Positions 49,928 to 62,258 of a DNA stretch of 64,000 nt are shown piece after piece. Under the pieces are notes generated by a model. It ran no database searches, was not told where the DNA came from, and saw only the letters and a list, made by a program, of their open reading frames with translations. This DNA comes from Candidatus Latescibacterota bacterium. Lineage in GTDB: Bacteria; Latescibacterota; UBA2968; GCA-2709665. The first letter of the stretch is position 1, and every line of letters starts with the position of its first letter. The stretch is taken from assembly GCA_965219455.1 (NCBI GenBank), contig OZ244744.1, forward strand, positions 2,176,001 to 2,240,000, written 5' to 3'. The position numbers were made by a program, and so were the translations under genes.

Positions 49928-51190
49928 GTGGACATCTTGAAAGATCTGGAGTTCCGGGGGTATGTTTTTCAGGTAACGGACGCCAGCGGACTCACGGCGC
50001 GGCTCGCCCGGGGGCCGATAACGCTCTATTCGGGGTTCGACCCCACGGCAGCCAGCTTGCACGTCGGCAACCTGATACCCATTCTGGGACTGCGGCGGTT
50101 CCAGTTGGCCGGGCATCATGCAATCGGCCTTATCGGAGGAGGTACCGGTTTGATTGGCGATCCGAGCGGAAGTAAGGAAGAACGCCGATTGAACCCGCCC
50201 GAGGTGATCGCGGCATATACCGAGAAGCTGACAGAGCAACTGGCTAAATTTCTGGATTTCGATACAAGAACCAATCCCGCCCAGGTGGTCAGCAATATGG
50301 GCTGGCTCTCCGAGCTCAAGGCAATTGACTTCCTGAGGGACGCGGGCAAGCATTTCCCCATGGGTTATATGCTGGCGAAAGAGTCCGTGGCTTCCCGTCT
50401 GGAATCCGGAATATCCTTCACCGAGTTCAGCTATATGGTCATTCAGGCATATGATTTCATGGAGTTGTTTCAAACGTGCGGATGCGAGTTGCAAATTGGC
50501 GGGAGCGATCAATGGGGCAATATTACAGCGGGAATCGAGTTGATCCGACGTCGTCTGGGCGGACAGGCACACGGTCTGACGTTTCCACTGCTGCAGAAAG
50601 CCGACGGTTCCAAGTTCGGCAAGACGGCCTCCGGTACTGTCTGGCTGGACGCGAGAAAGACAACGCCCTATCAGTTCTACCAGCACTGGATCAATACGGA
50701 TGACCGGGACGTCGTGAGCTTTCTGAAGCTGTTTACGTTTCTCTCGGAGGATGAGATCCGAAATCTGGAAATGGAGGTGTCACAACGCCCCGAGAAGCGC
50801 GAGGCACAGCGGGTTCTGGCCGACGAGGTAACCACATTCGTACATGACAGTACCGCAACAGACCGGGCGCGACGGATTTCCGAGGCATTGTTTTACGGGG
50901 ATCTGCGAGATCTGAGTGCACAAGAGATAGAGGAAGGGTTCAGCGACGTGCCATCTCATGCGCTCAATGGCGCGACTGAAGTGGGTTTGATTGGCTTGTT
51001 GGTCAATGTCCGCATTTCATCTTCCATGCGCCAGGCGCGCGAAGATATCAAGTCCGGCGCGATACATATCAATGGCCGGCGTTGCACGGATATGGGCCGG
51101 ATCCTTGAACCTTCCGAGAGACTCGCCGGAAAATACCTGGTGGTTCGCCGGGGCAAACGCCGCTACTTTCTGGTGCGCTGGAACAATTGA
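49928..51190 (+). CDS. tyrS: Tyrosine--tRNA ligase
   Basis: GFDPTA.SLHVGN, QIGGSDQWGN, KFGKT, S4-like tail. Confidence 0.97.
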   Translation: MDILKDLEFRGYVFQVTDASGLTARLARGPITLYSGFDPTAASLHVGNLIPILGLRRFQLAGHHAIGLIGGGTGLIGDPSGSKEERRLNPPEVIAAYTEKLTEQLAKFLDFDTRTNPAQVVSNMGWLSELKAIDFLRDAGKHFPMGYMLAKESVASRLESGISFTEFSYMVIQAYDFMELFQTCGCELQIGGSDQWGNITAGIELIRRRLGGQAHGLTFPLLQKADGSKFGKTASGTVWLDARKTTPYQFYQHWINTDDRDVVSFLKLFTFLSEDEIRNLEMEVSQRPEKREAQRVLADEVTTFVHDSTATDRARRISEALFYGDLRDLSAQEIEEGFSDVPSHALNGATEVGLIGLLVNVRISSSMRQAREDIKSGAIHINGRRCTDMGRILEPSERLAGKYLVVRRGKRRYFLVRWNN

Positions 51191-51286: not shown

Positions 51287-52264
51287 ATGAAAGCACCATG
51301 GATTACCTATCGGCCGGAACTCAAGGTACTTGATTGTACGATTCGAGACGGCGGATTGATGAATGACCATCATTTTACCGATGATTTCGTGAAGGCAGCT
51401 TACGAAACCTGCGTTGAAGCAGGGGTCGATTATATGGAAATCGGGTACCGAAACTCCAAGGAGATGTTCCCAAAAGGACAATTCGGACCCTTTCGACACA
51501 GTGACGAAGAAGATATCCGCAAGATTGCGGGCGATCACGACCCTGAAACGACCGGCCTGAAGCTCGCCATTATGGCCGATGCGGGCAAGAGCGATTGGGC
51601 GGAAGACATCCTGCCGGCCAGCGAGAGCGTGGTCAGCATGGTGCGCGTAGCCTGCTATGTCGAGCAGATCCCTGAAACCGTCGAAATGCTTTGCGACGCC
51701 CATGAGAAAGGTTATGAAACCAGCTGTAACATTATGGCCATTTCGACCGTGCAGGAGGTCGAGATCGACCAGGCGCTGGAAGTACTGATAAAAACCCCGG
51801 TTGGAACAATATGTGTTGTAGATAGTTTTGGCGCATTGTACCGCGAGCAGGTGGATATGCTCATTCGGAAGTATATGGAAGCCGTCAGCGGAACGGGAAA
51901 AGAAGTGGGCATTCACGCGCACAACAACCAGCAACTGGCGTTCGCCAATACCCTGGAAGCGCTTATTCTGGGCGCCAACCGGGTTGATGCCACGGTGGAC
52001 GGACTTGGCCGCGGCGCAGGAAATTGCCCGCTGGAATTGCTGCTCGGTTTCTTGCGCAATCCCAAATTCAAGATTCGACCTGTCTACAAGCTATTGGAAG
52101 ACCATTTTGTCAAATTGCGCGGTGAATTGACGTGGGGGGCCCTCATTCCGTACAACATCACGGGTCAGCACAACCAGCATCCCCGCTCGGCAATGGCGCT
52201 CCTGGACGGGGACGACCGCGATCGGTATCTGACATTCTACGATCAGGTGATGAGGGATATCTAG
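51287..52264 (+). CDS. DRE-TIM (HMGL-like) aldolase catalytic-domain protein
   Basis: LDCTIRDGG, VDSFG, HAHNN, GLGRGAGN. Confidence 0.85.
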   Translation: MKAPWITYRPELKVLDCTIRDGGLMNDHHFTDDFVKAAYETCVEAGVDYMEIGYRNSKEMFPKGQFGPFRHSDEEDIRKIAGDHDPETTGLKLAIMADAGKSDWAEDILPASESVVSMVRVACYVEQIPETVEMLCDAHEKGYETSCNIMAISTVQEVEIDQALEVLIKTPVGTICVVDSFGALYREQVDMLIRKYMEAVSGTGKEVGIHAHNNQQLAFANTLEALILGANRVDATVDGLGRGAGNCPLELLLGFLRNPKFKIRPVYKLLEDHFVKLRGELTWGALIPYNITGQHNQHPRSAMALLDGDDRDRYLTFYDQVMRDI

Positions 52265-54802: not shown

Positions 54803-55831
54803 ATGGCGTTCAGAAAGATCCTGAAGATACCCACCCCGGAAGCCGTACTGGAGAAGATGTCGCTTCCGAAGAAGCTGAAGGCTGTAAAGGATGAACGCGA
54901 CGCGGAAATCAGGGATATTTTCGCGCGGAGGAGCGATAAGTTTCTGCTGGTGATCGGCCCCTGTTCGGCGCACAACGAAGATGCCGTATGTGAATACGTG
55001 TCCCGGCTGGCGAAACTGCAGGAGGCCGTCCGGGAAAAACTGGTTCTGGTGCCGCGCATTTATACCAACAAACCCCGAACAACCGGCGAGGGGTACAAGG
55101 GGATGGGGCATCAGCCGGACCCGCGGAAGGCACCGGATATTTCCGAGGGGATCTATGCGGTTCGTCAGATGCATATCCGGGCGGTCCGGGAGTCCCATCT
55201 GACGGCCGCCGACGAAATGCTGTACCCGGGCAATCTGCCGTATGTCGAGGATCTGCTGAGTTATATAGCCGTGGGCGCACGGTCGGTGGAGAATCAACAG
55301 CACCGCTTGACCTGTAGCGGCGTCGGCGTGCCGGTCGGAATGAAGAACCCGACGGGAGGAGATCTTTCGGTCATGCTGAACGCGATTCACGCCTCACAGA
55401 TTCCACACGTCTTCATTTATAACGGCTGGGAGGTGAGTACCGATGGCAATCCCCTGGCACACGCCGTGCTTCGGGGCGCCGTGGATGTGACCGGGCGCAG
55501 TATTCCGAACTATCACTTTGAAGACCTCATACACGTTGCGGAACTCTATCGCCAGCGGCCGCTTGCCAATGCCGCAATCGTTGTGGATACGAATCACAAT
55601 AATTCCGGCAAACAGTTCAGCGAACAACCCAGGATCGGGTTGGAGGTGATACGCAGCCGGCAGAGTTCGGGATTCTTGAACGATATGATCCGTGGGTTGA
55701 TGGTGGAAAGTTTTCTGGTTGAGGGCACACAGAACGTTAATGACGGCGTGTACGGCAAATCCATTACCGATCCGTGCCTGGGGTGGAAGGATTCCGAGGT
55801 GTTTGTGAAGGAACTGGCGGAAAAAATATGA
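54803..55831 (+). CDS. DAHP synthase, type I-alpha
   Basis: VIGPCS, KPRTT, GARS, GMKN, HAVLRG, KSITDPC. Confidence 0.93.
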   Translation: MAFRKILKIPTPEAVLEKMSLPKKLKAVKDERDAEIRDIFARRSDKFLLVIGPCSAHNEDAVCEYVSRLAKLQEAVREKLVLVPRIYTNKPRTTGEGYKGMGHQPDPRKAPDISEGIYAVRQMHIRAVRESHLTAADEMLYPGNLPYVEDLLSYIAVGARSVENQQHRLTCSGVGVPVGMKNPTGGDLSVMLNAIHASQIPHVFIYNGWEVSTDGNPLAHAVLRGAVDVTGRSIPNYHFEDLIHVAELYRQRPLANAAIVVDTNHNNSGKQFSEQPRIGLEVIRSRQSSGFLNDMIRGLMVESFLVEGTQNVNDGVYGKSITDPCLGWKDSEVFVKELAEKI

Positions 55832-55909: not shown

Positions 55910-57022
55910 ATGGCGAATGATCCTCCGTTTGCGCGTGAGACGATTGCTATTGTGGGTGTTGGGTTGATCGGCGGATCTCTTGGCGTGGCACTCAAGGGTC
56001 TGGGCATCGGGCGAAGCATCGTTGGCGTCAGCAGGCAGGAGACACTGGATGCAGCCGGCGAATTGAATGTAATTGACGCGGGCTATCGCTATGAAGAGCT
56101 GGCAGCGGGAATTGCCGAAGCGGCGCTGGTTTTCCTGTGTACTCCCATTGTACGTATTCTGGACCTGCTGCCGCGGGTGCTGGGGGCGGCGCGGAAGGGT
56201 GCGGTCGTGACCGATGTGGGCAGCACCAAGCACGCGATTGTTTCCGCGGCGACGGCGCATCAACGGGATGGCGTGTGCTTTGTGGGAGGGCATCCGATGG
56301 CCGGGTCCGAACATCGCGGGGTAAGCGCGGCGGATCCTTTCCTGTTTCAGAACGCCATTTACGTATTGACGCCGTCGCCGGACACGCCCGATTTCGTGGT
56401 CGAAAAGCTCGCGCGCCTCGTGAGGGCGCTCGGGGCGAGACCCATGAGGATGACGCCTCAGGCACACGACAGGGCGGCGGCGGCGGTGAGCCATTTGCCG
56501 CAGATGATGGCCACAAGCCTGGTGTCCATGATCGGACGGATGACCGAGGCCGAAGGGTTGCCGATACGGATGGCGGCGGGTGGGTTTCGGGATCTGACAC
56601 GCATTGCATCCAGCCCGTATGAAATGTGGCGGGATATCTGCCATACAAACGGGGCCTCGATCCGTGAGATGATCGATCTCTATATTGAGTCGCTGGCAGC
56701 GATTCGCGGGGAAGTGGACCATGACGGTCTGGAGCAGGCATTTGTCTATGCGAATCGGGTACGGGGACAGATCCCGAAGGACTCCAAGGGGTTTTTGCAT
56801 CCCCTATACGAAATCCTCCTGGTGGCGGAAGACAGACCGGGCGTGATTGCCGACGTCGCTCAGACCCTGGCCGGAGAGAACATCAATATTAACGACATCG
56901 AGGTGTTGAATGTACGGGAGGGGGAAGGGGGCACCATCCGGATGGGGTTCGATTCACGTCCATGCGCGGAAGAGGCCGTAGGTGTGTTGGGGAAGGCGGG
57001 ATACAGCGTCAGGCTGAGATAG
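55910..57022 (+). CDS. tyrA: Prephenate/arogenate dehydrogenase with C-terminal ACT domain
   Basis: GVGLIGGS, DVGSTK, GGHPMAG, HD..AAAVSHLP, RDLTRIA, DRPGVIA. Confidence 0.92.
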   Translation: MANDPPFARETIAIVGVGLIGGSLGVALKGLGIGRSIVGVSRQETLDAAGELNVIDAGYRYEELAAGIAEAALVFLCTPIVRILDLLPRVLGAARKGAVVTDVGSTKHAIVSAATAHQRDGVCFVGGHPMAGSEHRGVSAADPFLFQNAIYVLTPSPDTPDFVVEKLARLVRALGARPMRMTPQAHDRAAAAVSHLPQMMATSLVSMIGRMTEAEGLPIRMAAGGFRDLTRIASSPYEMWRDICHTNGASIREMIDLYIESLAAIRGEVDHDGLEQAFVYANRVRGQIPKDSKGFLHPLYEILLVAEDRPGVIADVAQTLAGENININDIEVLNVREGEGGTIRMGFDSRPCAEEAVGVLGKAGYSVRLR

Positions 57023-57101
57023 ACGGAAGGATCCCGAACGGGAAACGGTTGAACGAGAGAGATTGCTGCCCGTCCTTTAGTGACTCCATTTTGAAGAAGG
57101 C

Positions 57102-58415
57102 GTGGTTTTGGAATTCGCGGGTTCGGTGATTTCCCGGGGCACGATCAGGCCCTCGCCAGGGCTTGTGGGGACATGCGACCTCCCGGGCGATGCCAACATG
57201 TCGATAATGGCCCTGGTGCTATCGTCCACGGCCGATGGAATCTCCCGGATTCACAGGTGTTCGCGACGACGCGACGTCGGGCGAGCCGTAGAATTGCTGT
57301 CGAAACTCGGGATTTCGGTCGGGTGGGACGGTGAGACCGCGACGGTGACCGGCGGCCGCTTCAGGGCGCCGGACGACGTGCTGCACGTGGATGGGTCCCC
57401 GGTTCTGTTTTCCTGTCTGGCGGGATTGCTGTCGAATGCGCCCTTTGTGACCAGACTCTCCGGAGTTCGGGCGGATGCCGACGTCGACAGGGTTTTCGGG
57501 GCGCTCCGCGCATTGGGCGCACAACTGGACATTCCGGCTGAGGATCGGACATCGGCAGGTGTGGGAGGGGGTAAGTTAACGCCCGGTTCCTACCGCGTCG
57601 GACTTCCGGATATGTTGGTGAAGTGTGTAATGCTTATGGCCGGGTTGGGTGTGGATGGTCCGGTTGAACTGTTGCAGGACACCCGTGGGGATGACGACCT
57701 GGAAGTGTTGCTGCAAGCAGCAGGATGCGGGCTGAAGAAGAGGCGCATGAAGGGCGCCGGCGGTCATCGATTGTTGATGGAAGGACCCGTACGGCTCCAT
57801 GGCGTTACCCATGAGTTGCCGGGTAGTTCGGACGCGGGGCTGTTTCTTGCTCTCGCTGCGGCAATGTTGAAACGGTCTGATGTGACGGTAACCCATTTCG
57901 GAATGGATTCGAGAAGCCGCAGGATCGTAGATATATTGCGGCGAATGAACGTATCTATGGATGTGGAGCAATACTGGACGAATTCCGGTTTTCCCGTACG
58001 ACGACTTCGGATCAGGGGGTCCGAATTGCGTGGTATAAAAATCTCGGGTGCGAATGCGAGACGCTTCAGGGACGTGCTCCCGCTCCTGGCAGTCGCGGGC
58101 GCGGTATCCCGGGGTGAAACGATTTTACGGGATGCCGAGGCGTTGAGGGACGGCCCGGTGGACTGTATTTCGGTAATGGTGGAAAACCTCAGGAAGATGC
58201 AGATTCAAGTTGGGGAGATGCCGGATGGGCTGGTTGTGAAGGGCGGGCAACTGCAGGGCGCCGAACTGGATGCTGCCGGCGACGCCCGTGTGTCAATGGC
58301 ACTCACGCTGGCAACGCTGGCGAGCGAAGGGGAAACCCTTGTAATGAACCCTGGGCCCGTGGATCAGATGCATCATGGGATCATGGAAAGATTGGCTACG
58401 GTTTTGGAGACGTAA
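57102..58415 (+). CDS. EPSP synthase (AroA) homolog with active-site motifs degenerated
   Basis: Collinear with class II AroA over ~430 aa, but most substrate-binding residues are substituted (see findings). Confidence 0.8.
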   Translation: MVLEFAGSVISRGTIRPSPGLVGTCDLPGDANMSIMALVLSSTADGISRIHRCSRRRDVGRAVELLSKLGISVGWDGETATVTGGRFRAPDDVLHVDGSPVLFSCLAGLLSNAPFVTRLSGVRADADVDRVFGALRALGAQLDIPAEDRTSAGVGGGKLTPGSYRVGLPDMLVKCVMLMAGLGVDGPVELLQDTRGDDDLEVLLQAAGCGLKKRRMKGAGGHRLLMEGPVRLHGVTHELPGSSDAGLFLALAAAMLKRSDVTVTHFGMDSRSRRIVDILRRMNVSMDVEQYWTNSGFPVRRLRIRGSELRGIKISGANARRFRDVLPLLAVAGAVSRGETILRDAEALRDGPVDCISVMVENLRKMQIQVGEMPDGLVVKGGQLQGAELDAAGDARVSMALTLATLASEGETLVMNPGPVDQMHHGIMERLATVLET

Positions 58416-58507
58416 GTCGTGTACGTAATTCGGTTGCCCGACGTGTATTGTGGCGGCATGGGCCGCTCAAAACAACGTGGGTCAATCATCGGTACGAGGA
58501 GAGTCTT

Positions 58508-58648
58508 ATGAGACTGGTTGGCAGGTTGTTCTTTCTGGCGTTACTCGTGTTCCTGGGAGGCGTGGTTTTCATTCGGTACACCTACAACTGTTCCTGGAAA
58601 GAGAGTTTTGCAATTGCCGATCAGTTTGTGTCTGACCTGACCGGTTGA
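58508..58648 (+). CDS. 46-aa single-TM small protein
   Basis: GAGGAG RBS; MRLVGRLFFLALLVFLGGVVFIRYTYNCSWKES... Confidence 0.65.
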   Translation: MRLVGRLFFLALLVFLGGVVFIRYTYNCSWKESFAIADQFVSDLTG

Positions 58649-58738: not shown

Positions 58739-59605
58739 TTGGGTATTGTGTCAACCACGCAGTTGCTGGGGGTGATAGGCGATCCGATTGCCCATTCGTT
58801 GTCGCCGGACATGCACAATGCGGCCATAAGCGTTCTTGAAGCAGACTACTGTTACGTTGCCTTTCACGTATTGCCGAATGGGGTTGAATCGGCGCTTCAG
58901 GGGATGCGCGCCTTGCAGATCCGGGGTTTGAACGTAACCCTTCCGCACAAGACTGCAGTGATGGCACACCTGGACCGGATTTCCGAAGAAGCACTGGCCG
59001 TGGGCGCGGTGAATACGATTTCTTTCAATGACGGCGAACTGGTCGGGCACAATACAGACGTGTACGGGTTGGCCACCGCGCTGGAGCGGACGGCCGGCCT
59101 CGCCGTGTTGCCGGAGCATTGCGTGATTCTCGGCGCGGGCGGCGTGGCGCGGGCGGCTGTTTATGCGCTGGCTACGCAAAATGAGGTGCGGCGGGTGAGC
59201 ATTCTGAATCGAACTGTAGGCCGGGCGGAAGCGCTTGCGCGTAATATGGAACGGATCACAGGCAAGACAATAGACGCGGGCGATCTGACGACAGACACCC
59301 AAATGAGGCGGTTCGCGGATGCCGGCCTCGTCGTGAATGGTACTTCGCTGGGGATGCACCCGAACGTAGAGCGGACGCCGCTTGCGGATACAGACACGAT
59401 ACACTCACAACTGGTGCTCTACGATACGGTTTTCAACCCGCTGGATACGCTGCTGATGCGGCAGTTTCGATCCGCGGGCGCGCTGGCTTTTGGAGGACTG
59501 GATATGCTTGTACACCAGGGTGCGCGTTCGTTTGCCATCTGGACGGGAGTCGAGCCGCCCGTCGACGTCATGAAGCAGGCGGTAATCGACCGGTTTCGGG
59601 CGTAG
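58739..59605 (+). CDS. aroE: Shikimate dehydrogenase
   Basis: HSLSP.MH, NVTLPHK, GAVNT, NTD, GAGG, GLDMLVHQ. Confidence 0.95.
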   Translation: MGIVSTTQLLGVIGDPIAHSLSPDMHNAAISVLEADYCYVAFHVLPNGVESALQGMRALQIRGLNVTLPHKTAVMAHLDRISEEALAVGAVNTISFNDGELVGHNTDVYGLATALERTAGLAVLPEHCVILGAGGVARAAVYALATQNEVRRVSILNRTVGRAEALARNMERITGKTIDAGDLTTDTQMRRFADAGLVVNGTSLGMHPNVERTPLADTDTIHSQLVLYDTVFNPLDTLLMRQFRSAGALAFGGLDMLVHQGARSFAIWTGVEPPVDVMKQAVIDRFRA

Positions 59606-59607
59606 CT

Positions 59608-60327
59608 GTGGTGAGGTCCGACCTACAGGAACGCCGGGCAAAACGGACTTTTGTGCGTCAGATGTTCGACGGCATAGCCGGTACGTACGATCTGTTGAAC
59701 CACCTGCTGAGCGCCGGCGTGGACATTGTCTGGCGGCGATGGACAGTAGACGCACTGGAATTGCAAGCCGGAGAGTGGATCCTGGACCTTGCAACGGGAA
59801 CGGGCGATTTGGGCCTCGAAGCGGCTGCGCGTGATTCGGGCGTGCGGGTTGTGGGCGCGGACCTGTCCCTACCGATGCTTCGGCTAGCAAACAAAAAACG
59901 GGATAGGGGATCCGGCCGACTGCTTCTCCTATGTGCAGACGCGGAGCGGCTGCCGTTTCCCGACGTGCAGTTTCATGCCGTAACGATTGGTTTCGGAGTA
60001 CGGAATTTTTCGGACTTGAACAATGGCCTTCAGGAGATACATCGGGTTTTACGCGCCGGAGGCCGGTTGGCAATTCTGGAGTTTTCCAGGCCCAGGGCGT
60101 TTCTATTACGCAGGATCTACTTTTTTTATTTCAAATTTATCCTGCCCGGCATCGGCCGGCTTGTTTCCCGGAATCCTCTGGCGTATCGGTATCTTTATGA
60201 GTCTGTAATGGGTTTTCCTGAGGGGGAAGCATTCCGAAGGCGTCTGACGCAGGCCGGTTTTGTCGAGGCGGTGGAACGCCGGTTGACCTTTGGGATTGCG
60301 ACCATCTATTTGGCTTCAAAACCGTAA
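59608..60327 (+). CDS. ubiE: UbiE/MenG quinone C-methyltransferase
   Basis: YDLLNHLLSAG, DLATGTGD, FGVRN, LEFS, YRYLYES. Confidence 0.9.
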   Translation: MVRSDLQERRAKRTFVRQMFDGIAGTYDLLNHLLSAGVDIVWRRWTVDALELQAGEWILDLATGTGDLGLEAAARDSGVRVVGADLSLPMLRLANKKRDRGSGRLLLLCADAERLPFPDVQFHAVTIGFGVRNFSDLNNGLQEIHRVLRAGGRLAILEFSRPRAFLLRRIYFFYFKFILPGIGRLVSRNPLAYRYLYESVMGFPEGEAFRRRLTQAGFVEAVERRLTFGIATIYLASKP

Positions 60328-60554: not shown

Positions 60555-62258
60555 ATGGTCAATCCTTTTATTGAAGAAATTGTATCGCAGGTGTCAAAAA
60601 CGACTGACATGCGCCCCGATGAGGTGAGGGCGCTGATCGAGGTCCCTCCAAAACCCACTATGGGGGACTACACCCTTCCGTGTTTCAGGCTTGCAAAAAC
60701 GCTGCGAAAGGCGCCGAATCAGATCGCCGCGGATCTTGGAGAGCGGGTACGGACGGGCGGACGCATCGCCCGGGTCAGGGCTGAGGGCCCATATCTCAAC
60801 ATTTTCGTTAGCCGGACCGAATTTGTACGGGAGACGCTTTCGGAAATTCTCGCAAGGGGCGAGCAATTCGGACGGAGCGAGGCAGGCGCGGGGAAAACAG
60901 TCGTGGTCGATTTTTCGTCACCGAATATCTCCAAGCCATTCACTATAGCCCACATCCGTTCGACAGCGATTGGAAATTCGCTCTGCAGGATATACAGGGC
61001 CCTCGGTTGGAACGTGCTCGGTATCAATCACCTTGGTGACTGGGGCGCCCCGCACGGGATGAATATCGCGGCGTACAAACGCTGGGGAGACGAGAACGCG
61101 GTTCGCAGGAATCCGGCCTATGAGCTATTTAACCTGTACGTAAAATTCAATGCCGAGATGGAACGGGATCCGTCTCTCAGAAACGACGTGAAGGACTGGA
61201 CCAGGAAGCTGGAGGCGGGCGATGCCGAGGCGCTCAGACTCTGGAATTGGTTCAGGGACGAGACCATAAAGGACTTCAAGCGAATTTATGAATTGATGGA
61301 CGTGGAATTTAGTGAATATACAGGAGAGAGTTTTTTTCACAATAAGGTGGGGCCGGTTATCGAAGCACTTAAGGCGAATGGCCTGGCGGTGGAGAGTGAG
61401 GGCGCCCTCGTGGTGATGCTGGACGATGAAGATATGCCCCCGGCCATCATCCAGACCGGACACGATACCAGCGTCTATCTCACACGCGATCTGGCCGCGG
61501 CGATTTACCGCAAGCAGACCTACGACTTCGATAAGTTGATCTATACGACCGACGCCGGGCAGTCCCTGCATTTTCGGCAGCTATTCAAGGTGCTGGAACG
61601 GATGGGCTATGAGTGGGCGAAAGACTGTGTGCACGTCCCGTTCGGTATCATTTCCTTCAAAGAGGGAAGGATGTCTACGCGCAGGGGCAACGTGATTTTC
61701 CTGGAGGACGTGCTGAACCGTGCGATAGAGCTGACACGGGATATTATAGAGGACAAGAATCCGGAGCTTCCCAATAAAGACGGGATCGCCCGGGACGTGG
61801 GCATCGGCGCGGTGGTCTACGCGGATCTCGATTCCCGCCGGACGCGGGACGTGGTGTTCGACTGGGATGAGATCCTTAACTTTAACGGCGAGACCGGCCC
61901 CTACGTCCAATATACCCATGCGCGTTATCGCAGTGTCCTACGTAAATACGGAGGCGCCGTGCCGCCGCCCGATGCAGACCTTTCTCTGTTAACCGAACCC
62001 GAGACGGTGGCGGTGGTCAAGTGCCTGGAACGGTATCCGGCGCGAATCCGGAACGCGGCCGAGGCCTGCGAGCCGTCTCTGATTGCCGGGTTCCTGATCG
62101 AACTCTGTACAGAGGCGAACCGGTTTTACAACGCCCACCGGGTCATTTCAGATGACCTGCCCCTGACCCGGGCGCGCATCGCCCTGGTTTATTCCATCAC
62201 TGTCGTGCTGTCGGCCGGCCTTCATCTGCTCGGGTTGCGGGCGCCCGAGGAGATGTGA
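60555..62258 (+). CDS. argS: Arginine--tRNA ligase
   Basis: DFSSPNISK, NHLGDWG, MSTRRG, GETGPYVQYTHAR, PEEM. Confidence 0.97.
   Translation: MVNPFIEEIVSQVSKTTDMRPDEVRALIEVPPKPTMGDYTLPCFRLAKTLRKAPNQIAADLGERVRTGGRIARVRAEGPYLNIFVSRTEFVRETLSEILARGEQFGRSEAGAGKTVVVDFSSPNISKPFTIAHIRSTAIGNSLCRIYRALGWNVLGINHLGDWGAPHGMNIAAYKRWGDENAVRRNPAYELFNLYVKFNAEMERDPSLRNDVKDWTRKLEAGDAEALRLWNWFRDETIKDFKRIYELMDVEFSEYTGESFFHNKVGPVIEALKANGLAVESEGALVVMLDDEDMPPAIIQTGHDTSVYLTRDLAAAIYRKQTYDFDKLIYTTDAGQSLHFRQLFKVLERMGYEWAKDCVHVPFGIISFKEGRMSTRRGNVIFLEDVLNRAIELTRDIIEDKNPELPNKDGIARDVGIGAVVYADLDSRRTRDVVFDWDEILNFNGETGPYVQYTHARYRSVLRKYGGAVPPPDADLSLLTEPETVAVVKCLERYPARIRNAAEACEPSLIAGFLIELCTEANRFYNAHRVISDDLPLTRARIALVYSITVVLSAGLHLLGLRAPEEM

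Follow-up and report, generated by a model that had tools for sequence, protein, structure and literature searches.

Why would an aromatic amino-acid operon keep, at full length, the gene of an enzyme whose active site is gone? The question is raised by aroAx, a gene in a 64,000-nucleotide stretch of a Candidatus Latescibacterota genome (assembly GCA_965219455.1, contig OZ244744.1, positions 2,176,001 to 2,240,000 of the forward strand; this stretch is here denoted the window, and positions are counted within it). The gene encodes a degenerate homologue of the class II synthase of 5-enolpyruvylshikimate 3-phosphate (EPSPS, the AroA enzyme) and lies between tyrA and aroE. An earlier reading of the letters (the original prediction) had taken it for an intact but catalytically dead AroA, maintained as a pseudoenzyme. 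Our analysis makes it very probable that aroAx has lost nearly all contacts to shikimate-3-phosphate (S3P) and phosphoenolpyruvate (PEP), shares its genome with a class I aroA, is unable to act as an enolpyruvyl transferase, and is kept folded by purifying selection that is strongest on domain 1 (the N-terminal strand and residues 238-437). The fuller reading, that aroAx is a maintained non-catalytic pseudoenzyme with domain 1 as the selected unit and a possible link to TyrA, is the one we favour, with lesser assurance.

The open reading frame (ORF) was found exactly where the original prediction had put it, on the plus strand, encoding a full-length class II EPSPS homologue of 437 amino acids. 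Hidden Markov model alignment to Pfam EPSP_synthase (PF00275) gave an end-to-end match of 157.3 bits (residues 20-429, profile positions 6-415 of 417; gathering threshold 22.8 bits), but the score for the aroA equivalog TIGR01356, 143.1 bits, is about half of the 287.25 cut-off. The top NCBIfam match is the TyrA-EPSPS fusion family, far under that family's cut-off, and homology to the solved Bacillus halodurans enzyme 3rmt is clear (E = 1.5e-41).

Residues were compared through alignments to the solved class II enzymes 3rmt, 4gfp and 3tr1 and to 75 canonical class II sequences. All the motif changes that had been predicted are present: PGDKSISHR became PGDANMSIM, GNSGTTxR became DGSPVLFS, RPM became ADV, SAQxK became DMLVK, RDHTE became DDDLE, KExxR became GPVDC and DHR became DAR. 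Replaced, then, are the equivalents of the PGDKS lysine, the SHR arginine, the GNSGT loop, the RPM arginine, SAQ, the KExxR triad and the DHR histidine. The prediction went too far in holding that only the IDE aspartate and the DHR arginine remain; both are indeed kept (D324 and R396), but so are K174, D198, E201, R349, D354 and D394. At 30 tracked canonical positions aroAx retains 5 residues, against 27-29 in canonical references. Among the 121 positions conserved in at least 85% of the 75 canonical sequences, aroAx keeps 61, and the losses fall unevenly: 14 of 46 polar or charged positions are kept and 32 lost, while 23 of 33 glycine or proline and 24 of 42 hydrophobic or small positions are kept (polar 14/46 versus others 47/75, Fisher p = 0.0007). 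Judged by its residues, aroAx appears to keep the scaffold and lose the chemistry.

The AlphaFold2 (AF2) model of aroAx has a mean predicted local distance difference test score (pLDDT) of 91.4 and a predicted TM-score of 0.90, and Foldseek aligned it to class II EPSPS structures with TM-scores of 0.76-0.82 (3rmt, 3roi, 2gg4). The model shows the two-domain enolpyruvyl-transferase fold with its six beta-alpha-beta-alpha-beta-beta units; aroAx is thus predicted to fold well despite losing the substrate-binding residues. MurA and the NikO-type enzymes are further enolpyruvyl transferases of this fold and Pfam family. MurA structures reach a TM-score of ~0.73 to the model, but MurA models score aroAx far lower (47-53 bits), and the genome has its own MurA.

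The genome, a single 5.84-Mb contig, holds three PF00275 genes: a class I aroA, a MurA-like gene and aroAx. The class I aroA lies 0.6 Mb away (G000:C1:1630978-1632204, minus strand) and scores 410.5 bits for PF00275 and 451.5 bits for TIGR01356, above the latter's cut-off. Aligned to the Vibrio and Escherichia coli class I enzymes (375 bits to Vibrio cholerae 3nvs), it has every motif intact. The second, true aroA that the original prediction had implied is therefore present, and presumably it is this gene that carries the EPSP synthase activity. Of 41 relatives, 40 carry an aroA that passes the TIGR01356 cut-off; the remaining genome is 95% complete and split over 320 contigs. The MurA-like protein (L002:1453-2745, minus strand; G000:C1:466423-467649) has an aspartate, in the motif PGGDKIG, at what is probably the position of the fosfomycin-targeted cysteine of MurA.

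The dead state is shared by a whole family. A homologue search with aroAx returned 39 family proteins (E from 3e-271 to 7e-74), and the next matches were canonical class II enzymes, from 1.5e-48. The family alignment comprises aroAx and the 37 matches of at least 400 amino acids, 38 members in all, with pairwise identities of 36-97%; the substrate contacts are missing in every one. At least 90% conservation is seen at 87 positions, of which 44 are family-specific, and aroAx shares C105, Q192, the DDD-x-E motif, D269, R273/R274, R280, F297, R300, R310 and G351. In the tree aroAx clusters with these proteins (P0002-P0040), apart from canonical enzymes (clade support 100). A homologue was found in 40 of the 41 relatives, with no internal stop among the matches listed.

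To survey the slot between tyrA and aroE, 20 loci were fetched across the phylum. The order tyrA, slot gene, aroE is preserved wherever the slot was examined, and in many lineages tyrA and the slot gene abut or overlap. Four deep families (f5, f6, f9, f13) have an intact slot gene in which every tracked residue is present; it is degenerate at both further loci of the window's order and at all 11 loci of the sister order, and cut down at the single f4 locus; two f10 matches are class I-like and located elsewhere. The tree places the degenerate copies in one clade (SH-aLRT support, from the Shimodaira-Hasegawa-like approximate likelihood ratio test, of 93) nested in the canonical class II clade of the Latescibacterota (99), on long stem branches; it has 49 rows, was built by a quick search with SH-aLRT only, and long-branch attraction could inflate the single-origin signal. 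From this pattern aroAx appears to be the original class II EPSP synthase of the phylum, still in its ancestral slot. In all five deep-branching genomes with an intact slot gene, no other aroA passes the cut-off, and five of five genomes of the sister order have a separate canonical aroA; this distribution fits a second aroA having displaced the old class II enzyme.

Degenerate EPSPS-like proteins are probably more widespread, since in a profile search 24 of 146 further representatives (P0142-P0287) keep at most 21 of the 30 canonical positions, as counted on a fast alignment and with two of the 24 being fragments. Several of the 24 keep domain-1 residues and have lost domain-2 residues, and one, from a Gemmatimonadota bacterium, bears the name EPSP synthase.

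Selection was measured with codon models of a single omega, fitted in IQ-TREE (GY+F3X4) to gap-free columns on fast trees; total tree lengths of 3-7 substitutions per codon make the absolute omega (dN/dS) values rough, and comparison with neighbouring genes of the same genomes is safer. In the window's genus (g1, 14 genomes) omega was 0.285 for aroAx, 0.122 for tyrA and 0.138 for aroE, and fixing omega at 1 cost 259 log-likelihood (lnL) units for aroAx. The constraint is uneven along the gene: residues 1-237 gave an omega of 0.38 (omega = 1 costs 92 lnL) and residues 238-437 an omega of 0.19 (183 lnL). A genus of the sister order (g18, 20 genomes, 19 for aroE) gave 0.20 for aroAx, 0.074 for tyrA and 0.092 for aroE, with a penalty of 546 lnL; there domain 2 and domain 1 of the slot gene had omegas of 0.23 and 0.17 (penalties 233 and 316 lnL). 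Mean pairwise identity in the dead family is 0.585 for domain 1 and 0.468 for domain 2, whereas canonical class II enzymes conserve the two equally (0.516 and 0.530); better conservation of domain 1 is thus peculiar to the dead family.

A sister genus, g6, carries the unevenness to its end. In all 20 of its genomes the slot gene encodes only 214-223 amino acids (a 216-residue product in the form that we modelled) and domain 2 is absent. The gene begins at a conserved ATG 13-19 nt past the tyrA stop, with a GGGAG-like ribosome site, in 17 of the 20, and its product joins the N-terminal strand directly to the segment starting at the second PGD motif. Read from these junctions, domain 2 appears to have been cut out in frame between the PGD motif and its repeat, with domain 1 left whole. 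Across the retained part the product shares 72% identity with a full-length family member, and it is predicted to fold on its own (pLDDT 94.6; TMq 0.80 to one EPSPS domain); 20 columns are invariant across full-length and cut-down forms. Its omega is 0.18, next to 0.15 for tyrA and 0.16 for aroE, and omega = 1 costs 195 lnL. Because relatives without domain 2 keep domain 1 under selection like that on the neighbouring enzymes, we regard domain 1 as the selected unit. A gene split in two was considered for g6 and rejected: a query with the N-terminal half matched only the canonical class I aroA in four of five genomes and nothing in the fifth. A similar domain-1-only form, also a separate gene, occurs in the f4 genome G117, where two ORFs of ~79 and 321 amino acids are inserted between tyrA and the cut-down gene (locus L050, G117:C190, ~1640-2920). 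Shorter homologues were also sought in a set of 5.8 billion proteins, which gave four proteins, three on contigs under 1.5 kb and one of 197 amino acids on a 6.4-kb contig, without recovering the g6 forms; in the ESM Atlas, residues 238-437 matched only EPSPS-domain and fragment clusters.

The original prediction had held aroAx to be maintained and not decaying, and dN/dS among orthologs bears this out: neutrality (omega = 1) is rejected in three genera, in keeping with the uninterrupted frames and the conserved positions described above. A decaying pseudogene as the principal account was rejected on the omega tests in g1, g6 and g18. The features by which a pseudoenzyme is operationally recognised, namely catalytic residues gone, purifying selection and an active counterpart in the genome, are all found for aroAx, its inactivity being judged from residues.

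Several observations weigh against a maintained function. The gene evolves faster than its neighbours: within the genus aroAx is 72-85% identical, against 85-93% for tyrA, and between families 42-45%, against 64-72%; in g1 its omega is twice that of the neighbours. The omegas themselves come from single-ratio models on fast trees with the long total lengths given above. In one of 14 congeners (G001) the gene is cleanly deleted, with only the last ~9 codons and the downstream intergenic region left (L091, G001:C15:221035-229000, positions 2611-2994); a small ORF and aroE follow, the contig is 906 kb long with no N in the 8 kb fetched, and TyrA is unremarkable (88% identity). In G016 the slot holds only an out-of-frame remnant, 80% identical to a congener's copy. 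Since it is deleted in one genome and broken in another, aroAx is accessory and non-essential. Finally, the dead copies of the sister order share few of the family-specific residues (12 positions), and it is therefore not evident that all dead copies have one function in common.

These observations feed the strongest alternative, that aroAx is an eroding relic without a job of its own, whose frame persists as it is translated within an essential operon, with selection acting only against misfolded or toxic products or for translation flow into the small ORF and aroE. Such a relic would show what is seen here, namely shortening and loss on several occasions (domain 2 gone from g6 and G117, the out-of-frame remnant, the full deletion) and fast evolution, with an omega twice that of the neighbours in g1; moreover, in many loci only a few bases separate the slot gene's stop from the start of the small ORF, and the retained positions are mostly glycine, proline and hydrophobic scaffold. 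But the stand-alone domain of g6 has an omega on par with tyrA and aroE, and the family-specific charged residues R273, R280, R300, R310 and E339 are invariant in full-length and cut-down forms alike. The dead state has also lasted across a whole class with zero internal stops among the matches listed, and the clean deletion in G001 suggests that the operon tolerates removal, so that polarity alone should not preserve 1.3 kb. On balance we hold the relic to be unlikely.

Unlikelier again is a neo-functionalised protein with a remodelled cleft, either a new enzyme or a sensor of a different, possibly cationic ligand, whose site would comprise K174, Q192, C105 and the acidic D197-D198-D199-x-E201. 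Conservation of these residues, which lie on the side of the cleft, is 84-100% among the 38 family members, several basic and other substrate contacts have turned acidic (R197D, H199D, S170D, S244D, N269D), and most lineages keep both domains, domain 2 itself being constrained in g1. Yet domain 2, which bears most of the motif, is deleted in all 20 g6 genomes while the remainder is strongly selected; the motif is not common to the dead copies of the sister order; and the loops that once closed on the substrate are among the least conserved positions of the family (34-50%). That aroAx is a still-active, highly divergent EPSP synthase of a new class has hardly any standing, for all its full-length fold, its place in the aroA slot and the EPSP synthase label that some sources give its relatives, because aroAx lacks almost all known S3P and PEP contacts together with the equivalents of the catalytic lysine and glutamate, a canonical aroA coexists in 40 of the 41 relatives, half of the protein is dispensable in g6, and the equivalog score is half of the cut-off.

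Under the pseudoenzyme reading, the original tyrA-adjacent class II enzyme would have lost its S3P and PEP contacts while the separate class I aroA took over the enzyme role, and domain 1 would have been retained to serve the aromatic amino-acid operon as a binding or regulatory module without catalysis, in an accessory role and with TyrA as its most plausible partner. That assignment of role and partner is tentative and, by our own estimate, has the odds against it. In pseudomonads, class II EPSPS is fused to TyrA. We name TyrA as first candidate because of the tight adjacency of the two genes, the TyrA-EPSPS fusion family as best family match, and a remnant in Pseudomonas syringae (Song et al. 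2005, BMC Biol 3:13, PMC1173090). In a single fold-together run, with two copies of TyrA and residues 238-437 of aroAx each entered as an alignment, the score was 0.00 (mark 0.32), which counts neither way.

The P. syringae case is the nearest in print. According to Song et al. 2005 (PMC1173090), the EPSPS domain of the TyrA-fused protein (AroF) lost ~200 N-terminal residues after a second, laterally transferred EPSPS gene had arrived, and those authors suggested that the remnant might become a regulatory domain. By that description, not by sequence, the two cases are alike in a tyrA-linked EPSPS displaced by a second gene, with an N-terminal loss of ~200 residues that matches the g6 relatives. 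Unlike it, aroAx is a separate, full-length gene and not the remnant of a fusion, truncation being seen only in g6 and G117, where the genes are separate too; its dead state spans a whole class, and it has measured purifying selection and a family-specific conserved surface. To canonical class II EPSPS (AroA, EC 2.5.1.19; B. halodurans 3rmt, Coxiella burnetii 3slh/3tr1, Agrobacterium CP4 2gg4) aroAx is tied by fold, clear homology, the slot after tyrA and probable descent from the class II gene of the phylum, and it is set apart by the loss of 32 of 46 polar positions, the sub-cut-off score, coexistence with a class I aroA and the shift of selection onto domain 1.

One could go further and suppose that domain 1 of tyrA-linked class II EPSPS has long had another, non-catalytic task, such as docking to TyrA or to the small, putative membrane peptide encoded downstream (below), so that it survives each takeover by a second aroA, as in Latescibacterota (full-length and domain-1-only forms) and in the P. 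syringae fusion remnant, and that dead EPSPS is a recurrent regulatory or scaffold subunit; we consider this generalisation doubtful, more so than a TyrA-directed module in the present operon. A precedent for such a subunit is HisZ, a catalytically dead paralogue of histidyl-tRNA synthetase that regulates ATP phosphoribosyltransferase, its known partner, and is essential for the activity of that enzyme. HisZ resembles aroAx in being a dead enzyme paralogue in amino-acid biosynthesis with the kind of role proposed here; unlike HisZ, aroAx can be lost, and its partner is only a candidate.

Literature searches on non-catalytic EPSPS, shikimate-pathway pseudoenzymes and aromatic amino acids in Latescibacteria gave nothing relevant, as judged from listings and abstracts, and no paper on a free-standing, conserved dead EPSPS was found. 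A preprint on EPSPS classification uses the term 'unclassified' EPSPS; by term search, 'non-functional' and 'pseudogene' are absent from its main text. Because some sources annotate family members as 3-phosphoshikimate 1-carboxyvinyltransferase, pathway reconstructions and glyphosate-sensitivity surveys that count PF00275 matches would mis-score genomes with aroAx. The operon slot also offers a natural series, from the intact enzyme in deep branches through the dead full-length protein, the dead single domain under full selection and the out-of-frame remnant to the clean deletion, which lets one ask why dead enzymes persist. The 216-residue single-domain form, being small and confidently predicted to fold, is well suited to the search for a partner or ligand. 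If the retained half does bind TyrA or another product of the operon, it would be a new regulatory layer in a long-studied pathway and would explain the P. syringae remnant.

[quoted passage not shown] As a separate ORF, aroAx begins 80 nt past the tyrA stop. Its annotated start is the GTG at 57102; a likelier one is the TTG at 57108, 7 nt past an AAGAAGG stretch, and the source annotations of the closest homologues start at the matching position.

Table 1. Features of the aroAx locus, positions counted within the window
Feature	Position	Strand	Remark	Evidence
aroAx	57102-58415	+	degenerate class II EPSP-synthase homologue, 437 aa	ORF list, PF00275, TIGR01356, AF2, Foldseek
aroAx, N-terminal strand	57141-57185	+	residues ~14-28, part of domain 1	
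aroAx, EPSPS domain 2	57186-57812	+	residues ~29-237; weaker constraint; apparently excised in some relatives	
aroAx, most of EPSPS domain 1	57813-58412	+	residues 238-437; most constrained unit	
tyrA	55910-57022	+	prephenate dehydrogenase with ACT domain, directly upstream of aroAx	Pfam PDH_N, PDH_C, ACT
Small ORF	58508-58648	+	46 aa, no annotation, between aroAx and aroE	ORF list, tblastn
aroE	58739-59605	+	shikimate dehydrogenase, downstream of aroAx	Pfam Shikimate_dh_N, SDH_C, Shikimate_DH
DAHP synthase gene	54803-55831	+	AroFGH type, upstream of tyrA	PF00793; TIGR00034, 247 bits (cut-off 173)
HMGL-like gene	51287-52264	+	between tyrS and trpB	Pfam, NCBIfam
tyrS	49928-51190	+		Pfam
ubiE	59608-60327	+		Pfam
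argS	60555-62258	+		Pfam

The 46-residue ORF has a GGAGAG ribosome site, a hydrophobic N-terminal stretch that, read by eye, looks like one membrane helix, and a strongly conserved C-terminal tail. A tblastn search found it at loci from every lineage fetched, among them loci with an intact aroA and that of G001, which has lost aroAx; at many loci its start lies only a few bases from the upstream stop. No Pfam or NCBIfam family matches it, and the large protein set holds 16 unnamed homologues.

A search of positions 43000-64000 against Rfam, with E up to 1, gave no match and so no known leader or riboswitch near aroAx. Between 54400 and 60600 we counted one promoter-like site (shuffle mean 2.8) and 10 terminator-like sites (shuffles 6.2, sd 2.6), with no convincing signal between tyrA, aroAx and aroE. 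Near-identical short contigs covering parts of this region (X19, 57033-57209 and 58399-58567; X17, 58111-58323) came from two metatranscriptome runs and from two further runs whose RNA nature is only a guess; DNA may be present in such libraries, and the contigs are at most a weak hint of transcription, while the parts without coverage carry no weight.

For the HMGL-like gene, the top NCBIfam match is 4-hydroxy-2-oxovalerate aldolase at 122 bits, below the cut-off of 229. The genes tyrS, ubiE and argS are interspersed with the trp and aro genes, an arrangement preserved across the order.

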